From: Escherichia coli
Lineage (GTDB): Bacteria; Pseudomonadota; Gammaproteobacteria; Enterobacterales; Enterobacteriaceae
Strand: one strand, 5' to 3'
DNA length: 64,000 nucleotides
Assembly (NCBI RefSeq): GCF_003019035.1
Contig: NZ_CP027447.1
Shown: positions 4,114 to 56,499 of the stretch, piece after piece
Layout of the letters: every line of letters begins with the position of its first letter
Numbering within the stretch: position 1 is the first letter of the stretch
Notes under the pieces: model-generated
What the model saw: only the letters and a program-made list of their open reading frames with translations
Database searches by the model: none
What the model was told of the DNA's origin: nothing
Position numbers and translations under genes: made by a program

Positions 4114-4776
4114 TTAATTCGGTGTATAACCCATTACCACGCCGCTTAAGCCAGAAAGTTGCTTCAACTCACCCAGCGAACCTTTCAGCTTATCTTTCGA
4201 GGCATCCGGCCCAACCAGAATACGGGTAATTTTACCCTGCACTGGCGTGGATGGCGACGTATAAACCCGATAACCGGCACCGCGCAGCTTACCGACAATC
4301 TCATTCACTTTATCGGCATTTTTCAGCGCCCCCAGTTGTACAACATAGGCTTTACCCGTTGGCGCTGCTTTTTCTTCCACGACCGGCTTCGGTTCTGGCT
4401 TCGGCGCAGGTGGTGCTTCAACCTTCGGTTTCGGCGGCTCCACCGGTTTCGGCTTCGGTGGGGCGACCGGTGCAGGTTCCGGTTCAAACTCGGTGTTATT
4501 GGCTGCAATAGTGGCCGGATCGAGCGACGGTGCTGCGGCATCACCTGCCCGCACCTCTTCCGCTGCGCCTTCCGGCGGCTGCGTCGGCAACGCCTGGGTG
4601 GCGGCTGGCATCATATCAGGCTCATCGCGATCGCCCGCTTTCGGCACCAGCGGGATAGCCGCGAACTCATCCTGATAATGTTTTTTCTGCCCGTCCAGCA
4701 GCCCTGGAAGTACTATCACCCCCAGCGCCACCAGCACGATCGTGCCCACTAACCGATTCTGAAACTTACTTGCCAC
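4114..4776 (-). CDS. dedD: Cell division protein DedD (SPOR domain)
   Basis: Pro/Glu/Lys-rich linker and C-terminal SPOR-like domain; start taken at internal MASKFQNRL. Confidence 0.85.
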   Translation of the reverse strand: MASKFQNRLVGTIVLVALGVIVLPGLLDGQKKHYQDEFAAIPLVPKAGDRDEPDMMPAATQALPTQPPEGAAEEVRAGDAAAPSLDPATIAANNTEFEPEPAPVAPPKPKPVEPPKPKVEAPPAPKPEPKPVVEEKAAPTGKAYVVQLGALKNADKVNEIVGKLRGAGYRVYTSPSTPVQGKITRILVGPDASKDKLKGSLGELKQLSGLSGVVMGYTPN

Positions 4777-6034
4777 CGCTTCTCCTCGCGTCAATCACTT
4801 CCATGACATGTGCGACCGTGTGGAACGAACCACACACCAGCACGGTATCTTCCGCTTTAGCGTCCGCCATTGCGGCATCCCATGCCTGCGCCACGCTATC
4901 AAATGATTTGCCGTTACCCAAATGCTCAAGCAGTTGTTCTGCCGTGGCACCGCGCGGCCCTTCCAGTGGCGCACAATACCAGTCATCAACCACGCTTTTC
5001 AACCAGGCCAGAGTTCCGGCAATATCTTTATCATGTAGCATACCGATAACCGCCAGCACGCGCCCGTTTTTCGGTAGCGCTTTCATACGCCCGGTGAGAT
5101 ATTCCGCCGCATGTGGATTATGCGCGACATCAAAAATAACGCGTGGCGACTCGCTCACAATCTGGAAACGTCCCGGCAAAATTGCGCTGGCAATCCCGTC
5201 GCGAACGGCATTTTCACTGACCTCCAGCCCGCTGGCACGCAGTGCCGCCAGCGCCGTTGCGGCATTCGGTTGCGGGACAAGCGGCAACGGCAGATTTTCC
5301 AGCGTGCCGTGAGCATCGCTAAACGTCCAGTCATGATCGGTGACGGAATAGTTCCACTCAACGCCCCGACGTTGTAACAGTGCACCTTTTTCCTGCGCCA
5401 CATCAGCAATGGTAGAAGGCATTTCCGGCTCACCGACAATTGCCGGTTTTTCGCTGCGGAAGATGCCTGCTTTCTCGCGACCAATACTTTCGCGATCTGG
5501 CCCCAGCCAGTCGGTATGATCCAGCGCAATGCTGGTTACTACCGCGACATCGGCATCGACAATATTGGTTGCGTCCAGACGACCGCCCAGCCCTACTTCC
5601 AGAATCACCACGTCAAGTTGTGCCTGTTTGAACAGCCACAACGCCGACAGCGTACCGTACTCGAAATAGGTCAGGGAAATATCACCGCGTGCCGATTCAA
5701 TCTCCGCAAAAGAGGCGGTGTGGGCCGATTCCGGCAATTCCTGGCCCTGCACACGAACGCGCTCGGTATAACGCACCAGATGCGGTGAACTGTAGACGCC
5801 CACTTTGTACCCTGCCGCCATCAGAATCGACTCCAGCGTACGGCAGGTGGTGCCTTTGCCATTCGTACCCGCAACGGTAAACACAAATGGCGCTGGTTTC
5901 AGAATGCCAAGACGCGCCGCGACCTGGCTCACGCGCTCAAGGCCGAGATCGATAGTTTTACTGTGCAGGTTTTCCAGATAAGAAAGCCACGAAGCCAGAG
6001 GCGACGCGGCTTGAGGAGTGCGTTTGATAATCAT
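4766..6034 (-). CDS. folC: Dihydrofolate synthase / folylpolyglutamate synthase
   Basis: 422-aa ORF, Mur ligase family P-loop (GTNGKGTT). Confidence 0.95.
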   Translation of the reverse strand: MIIKRTPQAASPLASWLSYLENLHSKTIDLGLERVSQVAARLGILKPAPFVFTVAGTNGKGTTCRTLESILMAAGYKVGVYSSPHLVRYTERVRVQGQELPESAHTASFAEIESARGDISLTYFEYGTLSALWLFKQAQLDVVILEVGLGGRLDATNIVDADVAVVTSIALDHTDWLGPDRESIGREKAGIFRSEKPAIVGEPEMPSTIADVAQEKGALLQRRGVEWNYSVTDHDWTFSDAHGTLENLPLPLVPQPNAATALAALRASGLEVSENAVRDGIASAILPGRFQIVSESPRVIFDVAHNPHAAEYLTGRMKALPKNGRVLAVIGMLHDKDIAGTLAWLKSVVDDWYCAPLEGPRGATAEQLLEHLGNGKSFDSVAQAWDAAMADAKAEDTVLVCGSFHTVAHVMEVIDARRSGGK

Positions 6035-15866: not shown

Positions 15867-16256
15867 ATGATTGACGCTCATGACTTCACAAGATGGGTGC
15901 GCACACAGGACACCCGTCTGGCTCCCGTTCTTCAGGGATTATTTGATCTCTACATCCGTGGTCGTGACAACAGAGCACGCACCACAAAACCAGAGAATGC
16001 AGACACCCTTTATTTCACAGTAGACGACTGCTACCGCGTGGACTTCACACCACACGGGCTGGCGTTGCACTGCCTGACACCACACGGCGAATCACTACTG
16101 GCTTATTACGACTCCCCGGCCTCCGTATTTGCGGCAATGCTGGCGCATCGCACTGCTGGCGGGTGTGCCTCGCTGAGTGAATACACCGCTGAATTTAACC
16201 GCCTTTCCACCCTCTTCTCGCAGGAGTGGCAGCGCGTGACGGGATACCAGCCATGA
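15867..16256 (+). CDS. Hypothetical protein (early region)
   Basis: 129-aa ORF, stop overlaps gpA start. Confidence 0.5.
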   Translation: MIDAHDFTRWVRTQDTRLAPVLQGLFDLYIRGRDNRARTTKPENADTLYFTVDDCYRVDFTPHGLALHCLTPHGESLLAYYDSPASVFAAMLAHRTAGGCASLSEYTAEFNRLSTLFSQEWQRVTGYQP

Positions 16257-19093
16257 GTGAGTTTGCATGGAGCTGGAATGAACCACGGCCAGCCATTGAT
16301 CCAGCCAGATTTACGGAGCACAGGCAGGAAACTGAAACCGACCTGCAACGCGCCATCCGTTACTACCTTGAGGCGGACAAAAGGGCACAGAAAGAACAGG
16401 AAGCAAAGGAAGAAGCCTTTTTCGCACAATCCGCCATGGGTAAAAAACTCATGGCATCCCATGAGGAAGCCGGACAGCGTGAAAAGCTGGCACAGAGCAT
16501 CATCAGTAAGCGCCGGGCAACAGAACAAGACCCGGTAGCCCGTGCCTTTGCCACACTGAAGGCGCTTCCCGTTTATCTGCGAGAACCTCTGAGCCGCCAC
16601 CTCTCTTTCCTGCGCAAGAAGCAGGAAGCCGATCGTCAGAAAGGCAAAAAGAGCTGGCAGGCGGAACGCTATGCACGCGGAACCCTGCGCAAAATATTCG
16701 AACGTCTGGACCGCACCGACAGCCGCTGGCTGACACCGGGTTATCGCTCTCTTGCCGGACGCGAACGCCTGGACGATTTGCTTTACCTGCCGCAGCTCAA
16801 CAAACACCAGATACAGACGCTGGCCACCATGACGGCGGCGATGTTCAGCAGCACCTTCGAAAAACTCTGCGATGGCTTTGGCGCGACTGATGGCGAACTG
16901 ACCATGGATGTAACGCTGAAGGCGTATCAGATGCTGGCCCGCATGGCGTTACACCTGCACATCATGCCTCCACATTATGACGCACTGACAACAGATAAAG
17001 ACCGGAGGAACGAACCGGACACGGAGCTGCTGCCGGGCGCAATCCTTCGCCTGACCTGTGCGGAATGGTGGAAACGCAAACTGTGGCTGTTACGTTGCGA
17101 GTGGAGAGAAGAACAACTCCGCGCCGCCTGTCTGGTTTCCAGAAAAACATCACCCTATCTGAGCCAGGACGCGTTAAGCGAGTTTCGCGCACAGCGCGAG
17201 AAAACACGCGATTTCCTGAAAAGTTTCATGCTGGAAAATGAAGACGGGTTCACGATTGATCTCGAGACGGTGTATTACGCGGGAGTAAGTAACCCGGTTC
17301 ACCGTAAGGCAGAAATGATGGCCACCATGAAGGGACTGGAACTTCTGGCCGAAGCCCGTGGCGACAGAGCGGTGTTTCTGACTGTCACCTGCCCGTCAAA
17401 ATACCACGCAACAACGGAGAACGGTCATCCGAACCCCAAATGGAACGGGGCCACCATGCGCGACTCCAGCGATTACCTGGTTAACACGTTTTTTGCGGCG
17501 GTCCGCAAAAAACTGAACCGCGACGGCCTGCGCTGGTATGGCATCCGCACGGTGGAGCCTCACCATGACGGCACCGTGCACTGGCACATGATGGTCTTTG
17601 CTCATCCAGAAGAAATCGACAGCATCGTGGCCATCACCCGCGATATTGCCATTCAGGAAGACCGCCACGAGCTGGGCAATGATATTACTCCGCGCTTTAA
17701 GGTGGAGTATGTCGACGGCTCAAAAGGCACACCAACCAGCTACATCGCCACCTACATCGGAAAGAACCTGGACAGCCGCGCCGTGGATGGCATCGACCCG
17801 AAAACGGGCAAGCCACGCGTTGACCACGAAACCGGAAAATCAATGGCCGAGAGCGTGGAACGCGCCATCGGCTGGGCGCGCCTTCACCGGGTCCGCCAGT
17901 TCCAGTTCTTTGGTATCCCCTCCCGTCAGGTGTGGCGTGAACTGCGCCGCCTTGCCAGCCAGATGGCACGCAACCCGGAAGGCCCGCAACGGCTGAAGGA
18001 TGACGCAATGGACGCGGTACTCGCTGCCGCTGATGCCGGATGTTTTGCCACCTACATTGAGAAACAGGGTGGCGTACTTGTTCCACGCAAAGACTACCTG
18101 ATTCGCACCGCCTACGACCTCGCAGATGAGCTGAACGATTACGGCGAGCAGAGTGTACAGATTTACGGGATCTGGTCGCCGCTCATCGGGGAGTCTTCCC
18201 GCGTGTGCACGCACCCGGATAACTGGAAGCTGGTAAGACGTAAACCGGAAGCGGAAGACAGCGCCCGCGAAAATGGTTTTGACCTTCAGGGCGGCCCTGC
18301 CGCCCCTTGGACTCGTGGCAATAACTGTCCCCGTGTACAGGAAACGGACAACAACGGGACAGAACAGCCGGAAGAACGGCCAGCACCGTGGCCGCAGCTC
18401 CCTGACGGCGTTGAAGTGAACGAATGGATGCGCTCACTGAAACGGCACGAACGCCGGGCGCTGATGCGTTCGCTTCGTGACAAACAGGCAAAAAACAGCA
18501 GTGATGAAATGCAGAGCTGGACACAGAGCCGCAAACAGCAGCGGCCTTTGCCTGATAACCACGAATTACTCGCTAAAGAATGGCGGGAGTCTGCTGAATC
18601 TCTCGGCCTGCATATCGGTGAACAGCAGATGCAGCACCTGTTACGGGGCGGCAGTCTGTACGTTGACGGCAGCATCATTGCACCGCAGGGATTTGAAATT
18701 GTACGCAAACCGGATACCCGACCGGACAGCCGGATCACGCAGCTCTGGCAGCGCCTGAGCCGTAACCACGGCGTAAGCAGCACGGAGATCCGCCATAACC
18801 CGGTCGCCAGCTATCTGGAACAGCTGGCGGCATCAGACCCCGAAGCCGCCGCACGCCTGGCATCCACACTTCAGCAAGACCAGAACACCATGAAAACACC
18901 CGTTACCGTGCTTTCTGACATGCTGCGCGCCATCCGCGACGCAGAGCACGCACAGAGAATCAGTGAAACCACTGAACGCGCCCGCCGCAAAGCAGACCTG
19001 CTGCGGGGTGGCCTGACCATTGGAAACAAAAAACAGACAGAAACGGGATTCACAAATCCCGTAAATGAGCAAAAAACGCGCCGCGATATATGA
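16253..19093 (+). CDS. Replication initiation endonuclease (P2 gpA-like rolling-circle initiator)
   Basis: 946 aa from MSEFAWSW; conserved HHDGTVHWHMMVF region of the phage replication endonuclease family; longer than P2 gpA (C-terminal extension). Confidence 0.85.
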   Translation: MSEFAWSWNEPRPAIDPARFTEHRQETETDLQRAIRYYLEADKRAQKEQEAKEEAFFAQSAMGKKLMASHEEAGQREKLAQSIISKRRATEQDPVARAFATLKALPVYLREPLSRHLSFLRKKQEADRQKGKKSWQAERYARGTLRKIFERLDRTDSRWLTPGYRSLAGRERLDDLLYLPQLNKHQIQTLATMTAAMFSSTFEKLCDGFGATDGELTMDVTLKAYQMLARMALHLHIMPPHYDALTTDKDRRNEPDTELLPGAILRLTCAEWWKRKLWLLRCEWREEQLRAACLVSRKTSPYLSQDALSEFRAQREKTRDFLKSFMLENEDGFTIDLETVYYAGVSNPVHRKAEMMATMKGLELLAEARGDRAVFLTVTCPSKYHATTENGHPNPKWNGATMRDSSDYLVNTFFAAVRKKLNRDGLRWYGIRTVEPHHDGTVHWHMMVFAHPEEIDSIVAITRDIAIQEDRHELGNDITPRFKVEYVDGSKGTPTSYIATYIGKNLDSRAVDGIDPKTGKPRVDHETGKSMAESVERAIGWARLHRVRQFQFFGIPSRQVWRELRRLASQMARNPEGPQRLKDDAMDAVLAAADAGCFATYIEKQGGVLVPRKDYLIRTAYDLADELNDYGEQSVQIYGIWSPLIGESSRVCTHPDNWKLVRRKPEAEDSARENGFDLQGGPAAPWTRGNNCPRVQETDNNGTEQPEERPAPWPQLPDGVEVNEWMRSLKRHERRALMRSLRDKQAKNSSDEMQSWTQSRKQQRPLPDNHELLAKEWRESAESLGLHIGEQQMQHLLRGGSLYVDGSIIAPQGFEIVRKPDTRPDSRITQLWQRLSRNHGVSSTEIRHNPVASYLEQLAASDPEAAARLASTLQQDQNTMKTPVTVLSDMLRAIRDAEHAQRISETTERARRKADLLRGGLTIGNKKQTETGFTNPVNEQKTRRDI

Positions 19094-19138
19094 AGCGCGC
19101 ATAAAACAGGCAAAAACGGGATTTCAGAATCCCGTAAA
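19041..19138. repeat. Two copies of a 25-bp palindromic repeat (AAACGGGATTNNNNAATCCCGTAAA)
   Basis: copies at 19041-19065 (inside gpA 3' end) and 19114-19138 (just upstream of parM-like gene); each has a 7-bp perfect stem. Confidence 0.5.
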
Positions 19139-19169
19139 CGATTAATTAATCAACATAAGGAAAAGCGAC

Positions 19170-20129
19170 ATGAAAATTTGTATCGATGACGGCTCCACCA
19201 ACATCAAGCTGGCATGGACTGAGAACGGCGAACGCCGCAACGCCATCAGCCCGAACAGCTTCAAGTCGGAATGGTCTGCGCCGTTCGGTGGCACGCAGCC
19301 CGCGAACTACATGCTTGATGGCGTGCGCTATGGTTTTGATCCGGTCAGCGATCGCTTTGTCCAGACGACCGACACGCAATACCAGTACAGCGATGTGAAT
19401 GTCATTGCCATTCATCACGCGCTGGTCAAATCAGGCATCACACCACAGGAAGTGGATGTGGTTGTCACCCTGCCACTGAGCGAATATTTCGACACAAACG
19501 CACAGCCGGACATGGCCAACATCAACCGCAAAAAAGCAAACGTCATGCGCCCGGTGGCGTACCAGAACGGAAAAGCATTCACTATCCGTAACGTACGGGT
19601 TATGCCTGAATCCATTCCGGCTGGTTTTAAAGCACTGGCTGACATGAGTCCGTTTGAATCCCTGCTGATTGTGGATTTAGGCGGAACCACGCTGGATGTG
19701 GCAAAGGTTCAGGGACAACTGGCAGGTATCAGCCAGGTGTTTTGCGATCCACACGTAGGCGTTTCCCTGATGGCCGATGCCGTACTGTCGGTGATGGCCA
19801 CTAACGGTATGCGCACCAGTCACCACATCGCCAATACCATTATCGAACATCGCCATGATGAAGCCTGGCTGCGCCAGCACATCCACAATGACGCGCATTA
19901 CGCCAGCCTGATGGCGGTTATTCGTGAAAAGGAAGAAACACTGAAACAACGCGTGATCCGCGCGCTGGCGGTTTTTTCGGGTTACGGGCGGGTGATGGTT
20001 GTCGGTGGCGGGGCGGAGATTGTGGCACCCGCTATCCGCGAAGCCTGCGGAGTTAATGCGACTTTCATCGCGGACGGGGTGCCACAATTTGCTCTGGTTA
20101 ATGGGCTGTACGCAATGAACAAGGAGTAA
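19170..20129 (+). CDS. ParM/StbA-family actin-like segregation ATPase
   Basis: 319 aa; IDDGSTNIKL, ISPNSFK, YSDVNV.A.HHAL, VMPESIPAG, LIVDLGGTTLD, VMVVGGGAE closely parallel plasmid R1 ParM. Confidence 0.85.
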   Translation: MKICIDDGSTNIKLAWTENGERRNAISPNSFKSEWSAPFGGTQPANYMLDGVRYGFDPVSDRFVQTTDTQYQYSDVNVIAIHHALVKSGITPQEVDVVVTLPLSEYFDTNAQPDMANINRKKANVMRPVAYQNGKAFTIRNVRVMPESIPAGFKALADMSPFESLLIVDLGGTTLDVAKVQGQLAGISQVFCDPHVGVSLMADAVLSVMATNGMRTSHHIANTIIEHRHDEAWLRQHIHNDAHYASLMAVIREKEETLKQRVIRALAVFSGYGRVMVVGGGAEIVAPAIREACGVNATFIADGVPQFALVNGLYAMNKE

Positions 20130-20133
20130 ACCA

Positions 20134-20445
20134 ATGACGACACCAACCAGAAGAATAAGTTTCTATCTGAAGCCAGCTGCCGTCAAGAACGAAGGAGAAG
20201 CATGCGCCTGGCTGGACAGTCTTACACCAGAAGCCCGCAAAAGCGGCCAACGCGTGGCTTTTCTGGCCGGGCTGGCACTTCTGAAGACGAATCCGGCAGA
20301 GGCTTACCGACTGGCCGCATGGGCTGATGATGAGATGTTACCTGTGACACAAATCAGCTCAAAAAAGTTTGAAGCACAGTCTGCACCAGTGGCTAAGATA
20401 ACCAGCCAGATGGCTGGGAATATCCGGGCGTTATTTCCTGAGTAA
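20134..20445 (+). CDS. ParR/StbB-like small DNA-binding adaptor
   Basis: 103 aa directly downstream of the ParM-like gene; ISFYLKP and LDSLTPEARKSGQRVAFLAGLAL parallel R1 ParR N-terminus. Confidence 0.7.
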   Translation: MTTPTRRISFYLKPAAVKNEGEACAWLDSLTPEARKSGQRVAFLAGLALLKTNPAEAYRLAAWADDEMLPVTQISSKKFEAQSAPVAKITSQMAGNIRALFPE

Positions 20446-20573
20446 AAGCATCTGCGCGAAAAATGCTCACGTTTATAGAGACAGTATCATTCCATTTGGC
20501 ACACTTACTTCAATAATCGATCTGTTAAACAAATAGATTGTCTATTATCTATCGATTAAAACGATCAATTATC

Positions 20574-20601
20574 TTGACAGTAATGTGCCTTTTTGTAAGA
20601 T
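20574..20601 (+). promoter_or_regulatory. Sigma70-like promoter (TTGACA-16-TAAGAT) with GATC overlapping the -10
   Basis: near-consensus -35/-10; three GATC sites at 20519, 20563 and 20599. Confidence 0.45.
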
Positions 20602-20707
20602 CGTTCGCATTGTGAGCGACAAGATAATTGCGCGGCATTGTCCATGCAAAACGCCCCAATAGCAGCAACTATTGGGGCGTAAAACTCGGTCGGACTCACT
20701 TAACCTG

Positions 20708-20793
20708 ATATGCGTGCCTTCCGAAGTAAATCAAAATGTGCGTCGTATATTTTATTGCTTACACGCACCTCTGTAAAGGCACGCATATTTTTC
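20708..20793 (+). terminator. Long hairpin (13-bp perfect stem, nested 6-bp inner stem) followed by T-run; attenuator or terminator
   Basis: ATATGCGTGCCTT (20708-20720) pairs with AAGGCACGCATAT (20776-20788), then TTTTT; lies between the promoter and the GTG start at 20810. Confidence 0.4.
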
Positions 20794-20809
20794 CTATGAG
20801 GTAAATAAA

Positions 20810-21079
20810 GTGCGGGCTAAAACAGGTATTTGCAAGAACCCTCATCGTTATAATCCAACATTTCTGTCTCTCCCTGAATATCAAGGACAAGAAGGTCGGC
20901 ACAAATGCGCTGCCTGTGCTTTTGAGCTAGGCATAAAAGATGCGCTTGAAGGACGCGCTATGGCTCAGAATGATTTAGTTTTAGCTAACATTCCGTTTAG
21001 CCAGGCTGGAACTGTAAGGCACAGAGATGCCTATGAAGCATATGTTCGTGGTTGGCGATTAATACACAGCAACAATTGA
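20810..21079 (+). CDS. Hypothetical 89-aa Cys/His-containing protein (prophage cargo)
   Basis: GTG start with GAGG 8 nt upstream; CKNPHRY...HKCAACAF suggests metal binding; followed by a clean intrinsic terminator. Confidence 0.5.
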   Translation: MRAKTGICKNPHRYNPTFLSLPEYQGQEGRHKCAACAFELGIKDALEGRAMAQNDLVLANIPFSQAGTVRHRDAYEAYVRGWRLIHSNN

Positions 21080-21087
21080 TACTTTTG

Positions 21088-21112
21088 AAGCGCCGATAAG
21101 GCGCTTTTTTTG
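21088..21112 (+). terminator. Rho-independent terminator
   Basis: AAGCGCC-loop-GGCGCTT stem followed by TTTTTTT directly after stop at 21079. Confidence 0.6.
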
Positions 21113-21565
21113 TTTGCACGATAGTGCACAAGTTTGCACAATTTTTTTGAACGACTTTTTGTACTTCCGGCCCGCGTGGTGGCTGGATCCGTCAAGGATC
21201 CGTACGTGCACAAAAATACGCGTTTTTTCTGCGCGCAGGTGACGGGGGAACAGCCCGCGTTTCAGGGGGTAAATAGCATTCCCTTAACGATGTCGCAGCG
21301 ACATGACAGAATGGCCGTATTTCTCACGCTGAGCGTGAAAAATACGTGAGGGATTCTGCTTTGATGGGGTGAAAGGTAAGGCCGTCAAAATCGCACTGAG
21401 GCGGCGAGAACATGCAGTCAGCGCAGTGGGATTGCGTAAGAGTCTGACCGTCGATGATGGCAATAAGCAGGAAAGCGTCGTGAAATTATCTGACTGATAC
21501 AGGAGCTGGAGAGTCGGGGCATAAATTTTTTATGCCCCGGCGAAGCAGCAGACAAGCGAAGCGCG

Positions 21566-55379: not shown

Positions 55380-56465
55380 TTACCAGCGTGGAATATCAGT
55401 CTTCACATCGGCATTTTGCGCCCGTTGCCGTAACAGGTGATCCATTAAAACGATCGCTAGCATCGCTTCCGCGATCGGCACCGCGCGGATCCCAACACAA
55501 GGATCGTGACGACCTTTGGTGATCATCTCAACTTCTTCGCCAAAGCGGTTAATGGTGCGCCCCGGCACGGTAATACTGGAGGTTGGCTTCAGCGCCATAT
55601 GGGCAATGATTTGCTGCCCGCTGCTGATACCGCCAAGAATGCCGCCCGCATGGTTGCTCTGGAATCCGTCTTTGGTGATTTCGTCGCGGTTCTGGCTGCC
55701 ACGCAGCGCTACCACGTCAAAACCATCACCAATTTCTACGCCTTTCACCGCGTTGATGCTCATCAGCGCATGGGCGATGTCGGCATCCAGGCGATCAAAG
55801 ACCGGCTCGCCAAGTCCGGCGGGGACGCCACTGGCAACAACGGTGACTTTCGCGCCGATGGAGTCGCCCTCTTTTTTCAGCGCGCGCATCAGTTCATCTA
55901 ACGCGTCGATTTTGTCCGGGTCCGGGCAGAAAAACGGATTTTGCTCGACCTGCGACCAGTCTTTGATTTCCAGCGGAATGTCACCCATCTGGGTCAGGCA
56001 GCCGCGGATTTCAATACCAAATTTCTCGGCGAGATATTTTTTGGCAATCGCCCCTGCCGCCACGCGCATGGCGGTTTCTCGGGCGGAAGAGCGCCCGCCG
56101 CCGCGATAATCGCGCAGGCCGTATTTTTGTTCGTAAGTGTAATCGGCATGACCTGGACGGAAAACGTCCTTAATCGCACTATAATCCTGAGAACGCTGGT
56201 CGGTATTTTCGATCAACAAACCGATGCTGGTGCCGGTAGTAACACCTTCAAAAACACCGGAGAGAATTTTGACCTGATCCGGCTCACGGCGCTGGGTGGT
56301 ATAGCGCGATGTCCCAGGGCGACGACGATCAAGGTCATGTTGCAGGTCCGCTTCCGTCAGCGGAATGCCTGGCGGAACACCATCGACGATGCAGCCGAGC
56401 GCCAGCCCGTGCGATTCGCCGAAGGTGGTTACGCGAAAGAGTTGTCCAATTGTGTTTCCAGCCAT
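55380..56465 (-). CDS. aroC: Chorismate synthase
   Basis: start [20 protein letters not shown], canonical chorismate synthase N-terminus. Confidence 0.95.
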
Positions 56466-56499
56466 CACGGCTCCGTTATTGTTGTGTTTGCGTGTTTAC

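Follow-up and report, generated by a model that had tools for sequence, protein, structure and literature searches.

A putative self-contained control region with opposing promoters, a folded leader and GATC sites before a prophage accessory gene of Escherichia coli

The stretch between positions 20505 and 20810 raises the question of how the small gene that follows it is controlled, and from which strand a regulatory RNA would be made. It belongs to a P2-like (Xuanwuvirus) prophage, in a cassette flanked by parMR and cos, within the window, by which we mean the whole 64-kb stretch of DNA that was analysed. The original prediction saw here a strong promoter feeding either a plus-strand small RNA of roughly 190 nt or an attenuated leader, under the control of Dam methylation. 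Based on comparison with its relatives, we consider it likely (with a probability of about 0.7) that 20505-20810 controls an accessory ("moron") gene of the prophage as a self-contained region, comprising a sense promoter, P(+), a folded leader, an opposing antisense RNA and tuning by Dam. The plus-strand features and the GATC sites are the following:

20574-20602, plus strand: sense promoter P(+), with -35 TTGACA (20574-20579), a 16-nt spacer and -10 TAAGAT (20596-20601), 10 of 12 positions matching
20519, 20563 and 20599: GATC sites, the last (20599-20602) overlapping the P(+) -10 (TAAGATC, 20596-20602)
20608-20809, plus strand: 5' leader of the 89-aa gene, about 200 nt from a predicted transcription start
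20607-20641, plus strand: SL1, the 5'-proximal hairpin
20708-20788, plus strand: SL3, a long nested hairpin with arms 20708-20720 / 20776-20788 and inner stem 20738-20743 / 20763-20768
20778-20818, plus strand: SL4, an alternative hairpin over the translation start, formed when the SL3 3' arm GGCACGCAU pairs with the region of the GUG start, GUGCGGGCU
20810-21079, plus strand: cargo gene for the 89-aa phrog_3941 protein, GTG start
21087-21107, plus strand: intrinsic terminator ending the cassette, an 8-bp stem with 5 GC pairs and a T-run

The same control anatomy is present in 35 of 38 distinct cassettes, carried by unrelated phages and plasmids in Enterobacterales and Orbales, a count that, like the others given here, comes from related sequences and does not represent independent events. 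The cassette was found in 172 of 5,426 complete E. coli genomes and also on phages and plasmids from several enteric genera, and its promoters, GATC positions and hairpins are retained in lineages with just 47-63% protein identity. In our reading it is this comparison with relatives that makes every element significant; within the window alone, promoter-like matches are not enriched (2 found, 2.5 expected). We found no described equivalent of the cassette in the literature, where the matches were unrelated prophage antisense RNAs such as STnc6030, and a scan of the region and 11 related loci against Rfam in E-value mode returned only sub-threshold, terminator-like matches and no family that fits. 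On the side of annotation, some homologues are unannotated in RefSeq, with what is probably a spurious ORF called across the leader. Two minus-strand ORFs beneath the predicted antisense RNA, of 44 aa and 39 aa, are not conserved with the L002 lineage and were dropped as genes.

P(+) was present exactly where predicted, as were the GATC over its -10 and the two GATCs upstream, and its conservation across lineages supports the proposal of a genuine promoter driving the structured leader of the 89-aa gene. When 19 lineages are aligned, the invariant columns for P(+) are precisely its key bases: T, G and A in the -35, and T1, A2 and T6 in the -10. The P(+) pattern lies 200-270 nt 5' of the start codon in 35 of the 38 cassettes, and no second conserved promoter for the gene was found across them. 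The homologous cassette sits, with its strand reversed, between the Q antiterminator gene and the lysis genes in two lineages (L005, L007), and 3' of cI in another (L006). Because homologous cassettes stand alone in such other phage contexts, P(+) can be taken to be the 89-aa gene's own promoter.

The three GATCs in 85 bp are unexceptional when viewed in this window: about 8 loci in the 64 kb have at least three per 90 bp, and the two densest loci inspected (2022-2040 and 55439-55520) fall inside long ORFs. Across the 19 lineages, 70 GATCs were observed against 16.3 expected, a 4.3-fold enrichment. Four positions are fixed, namely 5' of the -35, at the -10/start of P(+), in the spacer of the antisense promoter P(-), and at +4 to +8 of the predicted antisense RNA. 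A GATC is found at or adjoining the P(+) -10 in about 11 of the 19; the lineage of the window is without both of the P(-)-associated sites. Genome loci that bear the leader hold 3-5 GATCs per 300 nt, and leaderless homologues stay near the composition-based expectation, with means of about 0.3 in Dam+ taxa and about 0.9 elsewhere and a few reaching 2-3. With all homologues pooled, GATC density did not differ significantly between Dam+ and other hosts (p = 0.11). The GATC enrichment is specific to loci carrying the leader.

Further support for a mom-like arrangement comes from the DNA immediately upstream of P(+), which resembles a second site in the same prophage:

20513-20572: upstream GATC element, a 26-nt imperfect dyad (20513-20538 / 20547-20572, 73% complementary) that holds GATCs 20519 and 20563
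45740-45800: sister element, with three GATCGAT units

An 18-nt motif, TCGATTAAAACGATCAAT, abuts the P(+) -35 at 20552-20569 and has only one other copy in the 64 kb, at 45780-45797 within the sister element, where 0.00 copies would be expected. To the 3' side of the sister element lie a homologue of Mu Com (from 45842) and then a DNA adenine methyltransferase (45984-46775), genes to which the annotations of phage Chuche and RefSeq give the names Com and DNA methyltransferase. The upstream element aligns with the upstream regions of com-methyltransferase and of Mu mom in a four-way alignment with 25 invariant columns; counted manually, 18 of 21 positions match between the upstream and com-methyltransferase elements and 17 of 21 between the latter and Mu. 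The DNA upstream of Mu mom is a region of the same kind as the sister element. The OxyR consensus has no match within 3 mismatches at the upstream element, and the same search also misses the com-methyltransferase element. The idea of Dam control as at Mu mom has gained comparative support from the GATC enrichment, the fixed positions and the alignment with a mom-type element, with Dam sensitivity itself standing as what these features would predict.

The upstream dyad is kept only in P2-like lineages (L002, L044). These are linked to ParMR, and the locus lies directly 3' of parR, as might be expected if 20500-20573 were part of the ParMR module, either a parC-like centromere or a ParR-controlled promoter. 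We regard this as very improbable: the obvious ParR-type sites are two 28-nt palindromes of unrelated sequence 5' of parM (19041-19068 and 19114-19141), the dyad motif recurs 5' of com-methyltransferase and not near parM, and the cassette occurs in many phages without ParMR. The assignment of 20500-20573 as parC was rejected, the palindromes 5' of parM being better candidates.

The leader folds at -71.4 kcal/mol (z = -3.9), better than shuffled sequences, of which 0 of 200 were as good, and folding each sequence separately revealed a common plan across the 19 lineages. SL1 stands directly after the predicted start in all 19, though its sequences differ. The 13-nt perfect inverted repeat of SL3, with arms 55 nt apart, and the second repeat that it encloses (GTGCGT / ACGCAC) are both as first described; of the five T reported after the stem (20788-20792), the first belongs to the arm and four follow it. 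SL3 forms in the minimum-energy fold, with internal loops of 17 nt and 7 nt, and P(-) is located within it. A long-range stem of unrelated sequence (GAGGUGUCAUCU / AGAUGAACACCUC) takes its place in L002/L044, and among other lineages its form varies. From plain MAFFT alignments, whether of SL4 or of the leader as a whole, RNAalifold returned no structure, the stems being mis-registered between lineages, and it was replaced by covariance-model realignment, lineage-restricted alignment and per-sequence folding. In SL4, which also takes in the Shine-Dalgarno sequence GAGG (20798-20801), the U-run at 20788-20792 falls in the loop. Among lambdoid lineages 93.9% of SL4 cells are paired, with a covariation score of 0.49 against at most 0.13 when slid; the partner of the AUG is C(G/A)U, immediately 3' of UGUAAAG.

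These structures bear directly on whether a plus-strand transcript ends at the long hairpin and T-run, near 20793, to give a small RNA of about 190 nt or an attenuator gating the 89-aa gene. A perfect 13-bp stem, present in the minimum-energy fold, is indeed followed by U4-5 just 5' of the ribosome-binding site, and the L002 lineage likewise has a long stem and then AUUUUAUU. However, the two arms are separated by 55 nt that include large internal loops, and the terminator scan makes no call at 20776-20793. The hairpin and T-run are kept as a possible terminator in P2-like lineages only; Providencia-type and lambdoid lineages have no U-run after SL3, and the T-rich stretch there is the SL4 loop. 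No Rfam family matches. Finally, there is no other conserved promoter to serve the downstream gene, and therefore the transcript must mostly read through. Termination at this point is thus unlikely, and the T-run would rather correspond to the loop of a plus-strand hairpin that, as modelled, can sequester the Shine-Dalgarno sequence and the start codon.

The self-contained control region that we favour places its small RNA on the other strand, for which three features were identified:

20749-20777, minus strand: antisense promoter P(-), with -35 TTTACA (20777-20772), a 17-nt spacer and -10 TAAAAT (20754-20749)
20644-20680, minus strand: SL2, predicted terminator of the antisense RNA, comprising the hairpin 20651-20680 and the minus-strand tail UUUUGCAUGG
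20644-20743, minus strand: predicted antisense RNA of about 95-100 nt, deduced from P(-) and SL2, starting near 20741-20743 and ending after SL2

P(-) is the sole match to TTTACA-N17-TAnnnT in the 64-kb window. The pattern TTTAC[AT]-N17-TAnnnT occurs in 35 of the 38 distinct cassettes as compared with 0.17% of shuffles, and the spacer is always 17 nt. Although ten different -10 hexamers are used, T1, A2 and T6 are kept in all of them and form invariant columns in alignment A2. The sequence thus points to an opposite-strand promoter inside the 5' region of its target, as cis-antisense control requires.

SL2 had been noticed as a separate 12-bp perfect hairpin with a T-tract on the minus strand only. 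Both observations hold: the arms are 20651-20662 and 20669-20680, and the 8 nt after the hairpin contain 3.7 T on the minus strand versus 0.7 on the plus. The window contains a single match to covariance model R1, at SL2 (E = 1.4e-10); the cassette loci that were searched, among them lineages outside those used for building the model, have their match at this same offset. In an alignment fitted to the covariance model, 10 of 12 SL2 pairs show compensatory changes, the covariation score is 0.51 as against at most 0.12 when slid, and 101 cells are changed on both sides, compared with 38.9 +/- 4.4 in shuffles (0/500). In 25 of 31 sequences the minus-strand form of the RNA hairpin is the more stable one (p = 6e-5), with 44 G.U wobbles versus 7, and a pyrimidine/U-rich tail follows it on the minus strand only. 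SL1 and SL4 provide an internal control, with the reverse, plus-strand bias in 15 of 19 lineages each (p = 0.0017 and p = 0.004, respectively; for SL1, 28 G.U wobbles versus 10). SL2 is therefore selected as a minus-strand RNA hairpin. The U-tract after it is short, with C breaking it up in most lineages (UUUCCCUU), and SL2 of the window narrowly misses the terminator scan; it is most likely the terminator of an antisense RNA of about 100 nt. In L047, L050 and L053, model R1 has additional matches where a cII-like gene ends, inside coding sequence. The predicted antisense RNA folds at -35.8 kcal/mol (z = -3.35) and could pair along its entire length with the central leader, the SL3 5' arm included. 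Thus, the small RNA of this locus is most likely made from the minus strand.

Could the conserved features be protein sites in DNA instead, with no antisense RNA at all? TGTAAAG and the inverted repeats (SL3 and the upstream dyad) would then be operators at which a dimeric regulator binds; the 89-aa protein itself and a host factor sensitive to GATC methylation would be candidates, and SL2 would be merely a sense-RNA or DNA structure. SL3 shows no strand asymmetry (11 versus 8, p = 0.16), as a DNA-level operator might, and in many lineages is centred on perfect GATC-containing palindromes (GAGATCTC, GTGATCAC); protein sites are also suggested by the look of the upstream dyad and of the 18-nt motif that recurs at the com-methyltransferase promoter. 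Yet such operators leave unexplained why T1, A2 and T6 are invariant exactly 17 nt from TTTACA across ten hexamers, or why the wobbles and U-rich tail of SL2 are minus-strand-specific. We therefore hold a locus of operators with no antisense RNA to be quite unlikely, while noting that operators and an antisense promoter are not mutually exclusive.

For the favoured control region, we infer the transcripts and the direction of regulation as follows. P(+) would produce an mRNA with a leader of about 200 nt containing SL1, a central domain (the SL2 region and SL3) and SL4, which is able to close the start site. P(-), inside the central domain, would produce the opposing RNA of about 100 nt, ending at the 20651-20680 hairpin. 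This RNA (20743-20644) does not overlap the Shine-Dalgarno sequence (20798-20801) or the start codon, and therefore its effect must be indirect. By pairing with the central leader, including the SL3 5' arm, it would deprive the SL3 3' arm of its anti-sequestering partner; the freed 3' arm would then close over the start site, turning translation off. Indeed, when the antisense target was masked in modelled folding, accessibility of the start region fell in 15 of 19 lineages (0.39 to 0.29, p = 2.7e-4), and it was higher with the native than with a shuffled target in 16 of 19 (p = 1.6e-4). The thermodynamic effect of masking as modelled is modest, and duplex cleavage and interference between the convergent promoters would likely add to it. 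The methylation state of the GATCs may in turn tune the firing of the promoters, in the manner of IS10 pIN and Mu mom, and expression would thereby be tied to the element's replication or arrival.

What the cargo protein does bears on why it would be held in check. The AlphaFold2 model of the 89-aa protein (mean pLDDT 84) predicts a soluble helical protein with conserved Cys and His. C8, H12, H31, C33 and C36 are invariant, as is an SQAGxVRHK-type motif (S64, Q65, A66, R70, H71), and the Cys/His pattern would be consistent with zinc binding. It matches no Pfam, NCBIfam or PADLOC family, and nothing in the PDB by sequence or by fold. The family is very widespread, with more than 1,500 clusters, and outside enterics its homologues lie between Dam-family methylases and DpnII endonucleases. 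An autonomous cassette that moves with prophages and plasmids, in which the start site is sequestered and a predicted antisense RNA opposes the leader as in hok/sok, brings to mind a type I toxin-antitoxin or addiction module, in which an 89-aa toxin, such as a small nuclease, is silenced by the antisense RNA and a translation-inactive leader. The invariant His, Arg and Cys, along with the label HNH endonuclease given to one homologue in UniProt, would fit. However, the protein is not a small hydrophobic peptide and has no nuclease fold or sequence match, and homologues embedded with methylase and endonuclease in restriction-modification operons suggest a regulatory or accessory role rather than a toxin. 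Addiction is thus improbable in our estimation. A more tentative proposal, which we think unlikely, is that phrog_3941 is an unrecognised accessory or regulatory part of GATC-specific (DpnII-type) restriction-modification, captured by the temperate phages of Dam+ enterics, with the fixed GATCs at both convergent promoters and the mom-type element making its expression report the methylation state of the element. The GATCs may be the protein's own operators, and phrog_3941 may co-regulate the com-methyltransferase module of the prophage through the 18-nt motif.

The cassette offers an RNA regulatory system with unusually clean comparative support, in which two promoters and four hairpins are conserved, covariation is seen and a strand is assigned for each hairpin. 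It is also a natural system with Dam sites on both partners of a sense/antisense promoter pair, and makes ideas of replication-coupled expression, in the style of IS10 and mom, testable on a prophage cargo gene. If the more tentative proposal for phrog_3941 is true, Dam sites, an antisense RNA and leader refolding would together make an epigenetic self-sensing switch, whose methylation read-out would tell a freshly replicated or newly arrived element from a resident one. In addition, a widespread uncharacterised small protein family is linked to GATC-specific restriction-modification operons, where the order Dam methylase, X, DpnII provides a concrete functional hypothesis for phrog_3941. The annotation errors described above, homologues missed in RefSeq and a probable spurious ORF over the leader, are also flagged.

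Several known systems share parts of this anatomy. Restriction-modification genes are reportedly subject to antisense control. In operons with C-protein control or, as for EcoRI, antisense RNAs, the likeness is that homologues of the cargo hold the position of an accessory or control gene; the 89-aa protein differs from C protein in having no helix-turn-helix or Pfam domain, and in the prophage its gene stands alone, with no adjacent methylase or endonuclease. Countertranscript attenuation (pT181, pIP501) likewise uses antisense RNA to oppose a leader whose final hairpin and U-run stand immediately ahead of the ribosome-binding site. The only Rfam matches of that kind, ctRNA_pGA1 (RF00236) and sar (RF00262), are weak, cover the SL2 hairpin only at 22.1 and 22.0 bits against gathering thresholds of 45 and 43, and do not recur in 11 related loci. 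Here, in contrast, the terminator-like hairpin is not conserved as a terminator, and the antisense RNA would disrupt the long hairpin rather than induce it.

With hok/sok, other type I toxin-antitoxin leaders and FinP/traJ of F-like plasmids the cassette shares a long, highly folded leader, a sequestered start and, as predicted here, an opposing cis-antisense RNA in the range of 60-100 nt; traJ/finP of pSLT is also reportedly Dam-responsive. A difference is that FinP masks its target's ribosome-binding site and Sok the one belonging to mok, an upstream frame to which hok translation is coupled. The soluble Cys/His-rich cargo and the lack of an Rfam family match also set our cassette apart. The Mu mom/com region has three upstream GATCs, where Dam blocks OxyR repression, and Com activates translation. 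The -10 reads TAAGAT at both P(+) and mom, and the element upstream of the 89-aa gene aligns with the mom-type GATC element. However, only one of the three aligned units here keeps its GATC (20563), units 1 and 2 reading ATAGAT and TATCGAT; an extra GATC lies further 5' (20519), and three clustered GATCs 5' of the -35 are absent. Unlike mom, P(+) is a near-consensus sigma-70 promoter that is not C-dependent, no com gene precedes the 89-aa gene, and the antisense RNA predicted here has no counterpart there.

Finally, transposase control in IS10/Tn10 reportedly involves a promoter, pIN, with a Dam site in its -10. As with pIN and pOUT, two promoters oppose each other in the cassette, and a short stable antisense RNA with a terminal hairpin (RNA-OUT there, predicted here) would keep a mobile-element protein very low. 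For IS10, the pairing of a -10 Dam site with antisense RNA has been described (PMC5006887). The two systems have no sequence relation, and the promoters lie about 165 bp apart here but overlap in IS10; our predicted antisense RNA reaches neither the start codon nor the Shine-Dalgarno sequence and would work by refolding the leader, and the cargo is not a transposase. In both, a GATC lies over the sense -10, and in most lineages of the cassette GATCs mark the antisense promoter as well.

The control region lies in an E. coli chromosome with a P2-like prophage (Xuanwuvirus, P88-type). The 376 nt around it are 100% identical in O157:H7 FRIK2455 and are found in 172 of 5,426 complete E. coli genomes, in every case on the chromosome. 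Together with the 89-aa gene that it precedes it forms a cassette at the P2 cargo position, occupied by tin and old in P2 itself.

Genes and features around the cassette
16226-19093, replication endonuclease
19170-20129, ParM
20134-20445, ParR/StbB-like protein
364 nt between the ParR/StbB-like gene and the 89-aa ORF, intergenic region, the control region
20810-21079, 89-aa ORF
21087-21107, terminator 3' of the 89-aa ORF
3' of the terminator, cos region, then the portal gene on the opposite strand

Two 28-nt palindromic units spaced 73 bp (19041-19068 and 19114-19141; AAACGGGATT..AATCCCGTAAA) straddle the 3' end of the replication gene (19093), just 5' of parM, and are a likely candidate for a parC/ParR-binding centromere. 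A direct repeat, GGATCCGT(CAA)GGATCCGT at 21185-21201, holds two GATCs; it lies past the cassette terminator, ahead of the conserved cos-proximal region.

The promoter, GATCs, inverted repeats, hairpin and T-run listed in the original prediction are all present, the last being five T at 20788-20792 with only four past the stem. On their own, the promoter match and the three GATCs in 85 bp are ordinary for the window, unlike the folding energy of the leader (z = -3.9). The weight of the evidence lies in sequence comparison with relatives. Unrelated elements carry solitary homologues of the 89-aa protein (phrog_3941; 40-63% identity). In a Providencia phage and an Arsenophonus phage-plasmid the gene sits on the opposite strand, flanked by the Q antiterminator gene and the lysis genes; in a P22-like Salmonella phage it is 3' of cI; plasmids have it too. 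The divergent P2-like prophages L002 and L003 preserve the same layout, with the gene lacking RefSeq annotation (4281-4559 and 4269-4547, both in E. coli), such that their 650-750-nt "intergenic" stretch is leader plus homologue. L002 carries an extra 95-aa gene (4626-4913; phrog_33929, with a weak PADLOC PDC-S02 match, E = 0.005) between cassette and portal gene. Among viral contigs, 80 loci with 45 distinct upstream regions were found; de-duplication on the last 150 nt left 38 distinct cassettes. In related loci, an annotated "hypothetical protein" of Salmonella phage BIS08P22 (L006, 2665-2901) covers the cI terminator, the sense promoter and part of the leader, and is probably a spurious call; Rfam matches to C4 antisense RNA, its a1/b1 targets and isrK lie ~1-2 kb from the cassette (L062, 1259-1457; L007, 5145-5341), the a1/b1 targets exceeding the gathering score in L062 only; and L071 holds a tmRNA gene (533-895).

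Across 19 divergent representatives, the sense promoter P(+) stands 200-270 nt 5' of the start codon, and a minus-strand promoter, P(-), 29-42 nt 5' of it with a 17-nt spacer without exception. A plain MAFFT alignment leaves these columns invariant: in P(+), the -35 T, G and A and the -10 T1, A2 and T6; in P(-), the -35 TTTACA (GTAAAG on the plus strand) and the -10 T1, A2 and T6 (plus-strand A...TA). The pattern TTTAC[AT]-N17-TAnnnT occurs in 35 of the 38 distinct cassettes, with ten different -10 hexamers, versus 0.17% of shuffles, and TTTACA-N17-TAnnnT has a single match in the 64-kb window, at 20749-20777. An 11-nt perfect inverted repeat (20566-20576 / 20620-20630; CAATTATCTTG / CAAGATAATTG) flanks P(+) from the -35 to ~+20; no conservation of it was found in the L002 lineage.

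The leader has four hairpins (SL1 to SL4, 5' to 3'), which differ in strand preference. The covariance model of SL2 (20651-20680) matches the window once (E = 1.4e-10); in the cassette loci searched, some of them from lineages outside model building, its match falls at the same offset. Compensatory changes affect 10 of its 12 pairs, cells with both sides changed number 101 against 38.9 +/- 4.4 in shuffles (0/500), and its covariation score of 0.51 falls to at most 0.12 when slid. When each distinct sequence was folded on both strands, the minus-strand RNA was stabler in 25/31 (p = 6e-5); G.U pairs number 44 on the minus strand versus 7 on the plus, and a T-rich tail follows on the minus strand only (3.7 versus 0.7 T in the 8 nt past the hairpin). 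SL1, the 5' hairpin, and SL4, the start-site hairpin, serve as an internal control with the opposite bias, the plus strand being stabler in 15/19 for each (p = 0.0017 and p = 0.004). SL4 of the lambdoid lineages is 93.9% paired, has many G.U pairs on the plus strand only, and pairs the AUG with a C(G/A)U located after UGUAAAG. The plus-strand small RNA or attenuated leader ending at a terminator, as first proposed, is not supported: its supposed T-rich tail is the SL4 loop. The long nested hairpin of that proposal, SL3, is real in the window and has a counterpart of wholly different sequence in L002; its form varies among other lineages, comparison of both strands across lineages found no stability bias, and it may act at either the RNA or the DNA level.

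In two cases SL2 has the same stem as in close relatives but the reverse complement of their loop (UUGCCG in L050 versus CGGCAA in L006; UUGACG in L074 versus CGUCAA in L075); these look like independent hairpin-loop inversions. A minus-strand hairpin at the 3' end of a cII-like gene also matches the SL2 model (E ~1e-5; L047 779-826, L050 718-765, L053 721-768) and may be an OOP-type terminator region.

An antisense RNA from P(-) would start near 20741-20743, run through the 5' arm of SL3 and end past SL2 after ~100 nt, stopping short of the Shine-Dalgarno sequence (20798-20801). The 3' arm of SL3 (GGCACGCAU) can pair alternatively with the GUG start region in the window, and that of L002 holds ACCUCA, complementary to the Shine-Dalgarno UGAGGU. 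In partition-function modelling, masking the antisense target lowered start-site accessibility from 0.39 to 0.29 (15/19 lineages, p = 2.7e-4), and with the native target region the start site was more accessible than with shuffled ones (16/19, p = 1.6e-4). From this modelling we infer that antisense pairing would lock the start site shut; duplex cleavage and promoter interference are plausible further effects.

GATC occurs 70 times in the 19 leaders, where dinucleotide shuffles predict 16.3, and lies at four fixed positions.

GATC positions in the 19 leaders
Position 1, just 5' of the P(+) -35, 17/19
Position 2, at or adjoining the P(+) -10, ~11/19
Position 3, +4 to +8 of the antisense RNA, 15/19
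Position 4, P(-) spacer, 11/19

The lineage of the window has lost both P(-)-associated GATCs and has an additional one at 20519. When one genome per species was scanned, the leader appeared in 11 loci, only in Pantoea, Citrobacter, Rahnella, Yersinia, Proteus and Gilliamella, all of which we take to be Dam+ groups, with 3-5 GATCs each in the 300 nt upstream. Leaderless homologues, whatever the host, have GATC counts close to what composition predicts (means ~0.3 and ~0.9, a few with 2-3). Taken by itself, GATC clustering is weak evidence, because the densest clusters of the window (5 per 90 bp at 2022-2040 and 6 per 90 bp at 55439-55520) fall within long ORFs and not control regions, the second in a 362-aa ORF (55380-56468). 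Comparison of the leaders supports the proposal that Dam would control the promoter.

The 89-aa protein is of unknown function, and no family match was found in Pfam, NCBIfam or PADLOC. It has invariant C8, H12, H31, C33 and C36 and an SQAGxVRHK-type motif, and its AlphaFold2 model is confident (pLDDT 84), with no counterpart found in the PDB. The family exceeds 1,500 clusters, every one named hypothetical, and includes fusions to WYL and GmrSD-N domains. Outside enterics, homologues lie within restriction-modification loci and share their strand. The order in L116 (2-2363) is methylase of the Dam family (TIGR00571, 284 bits), homologue, DpnII endonuclease (PF04556, E = 3.6e-112), with gaps of 8 and 32 nt, and L120, L127, L129, L136, L137, L141, L142 and L158 also have methylase, homologue and DpnII on one strand. 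A Dam-like methylase adjoins the homologue in 16 loci, a beta-class N6-methylase in at least 11 and a DpnII-type enzyme in 11; other loci have further defence-type neighbours. The homologue has the look of a third, hitherto unrecognised gene in GATC-specific restriction-modification operons, and it is unlikely to be coincidence that a GATC-studded phage leader precedes a member of this family.

At 45740-46775 of the same prophage, three GATCGAT units stand 5' of genes for a Mu Com homologue and for a DNA adenine methyltransferase. The window has two copies of the 18-nt motif TCGATnAAAACGATCnAT and no more (0.00 expected), one at each locus.

Shared motif and com-methyltransferase module
20552-20569, TCGATnAAAACGATCnAT copy 1, abutting the P(+) -35
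45780-45797, TCGATnAAAACGATCnAT copy 2, in the element upstream of the module
From 45842, Com zinc-finger homologue, annotated as Com in phage Chuche and RefSeq
45984-46775, DPPY DNA adenine methyltransferase, annotated as DNA methyltransferase in phage Chuche and RefSeq

Cassette and module are 25-26 kb apart in at least two other genomes, as in the window. Both motif sites can be aligned with the upstream region of Mu mom, and the suggested analogy with mom therefore has a sequence basis for the upstream element of the P2 lineage. However, of the three homologous units at the cassette a single one retains its GATC, the promoter is strong and a com gene is absent.

The observation holds up and is of more interest than its first description suggested. 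The stretch is a cargo gene's control region and, judged from sequence, would unite a promoter marked by Dam sites with a leader able to switch and with a conserved antisense promoter that has a predicted terminator. The cassette family and its specific combination of features appear undescribed; the kind of system, that of IS10, mom and hok/sok-type control, is already known. IS10 has a Dam site in its -10 and an antisense RNA (PMC5006887), a pairing likewise predicted for the cassette.
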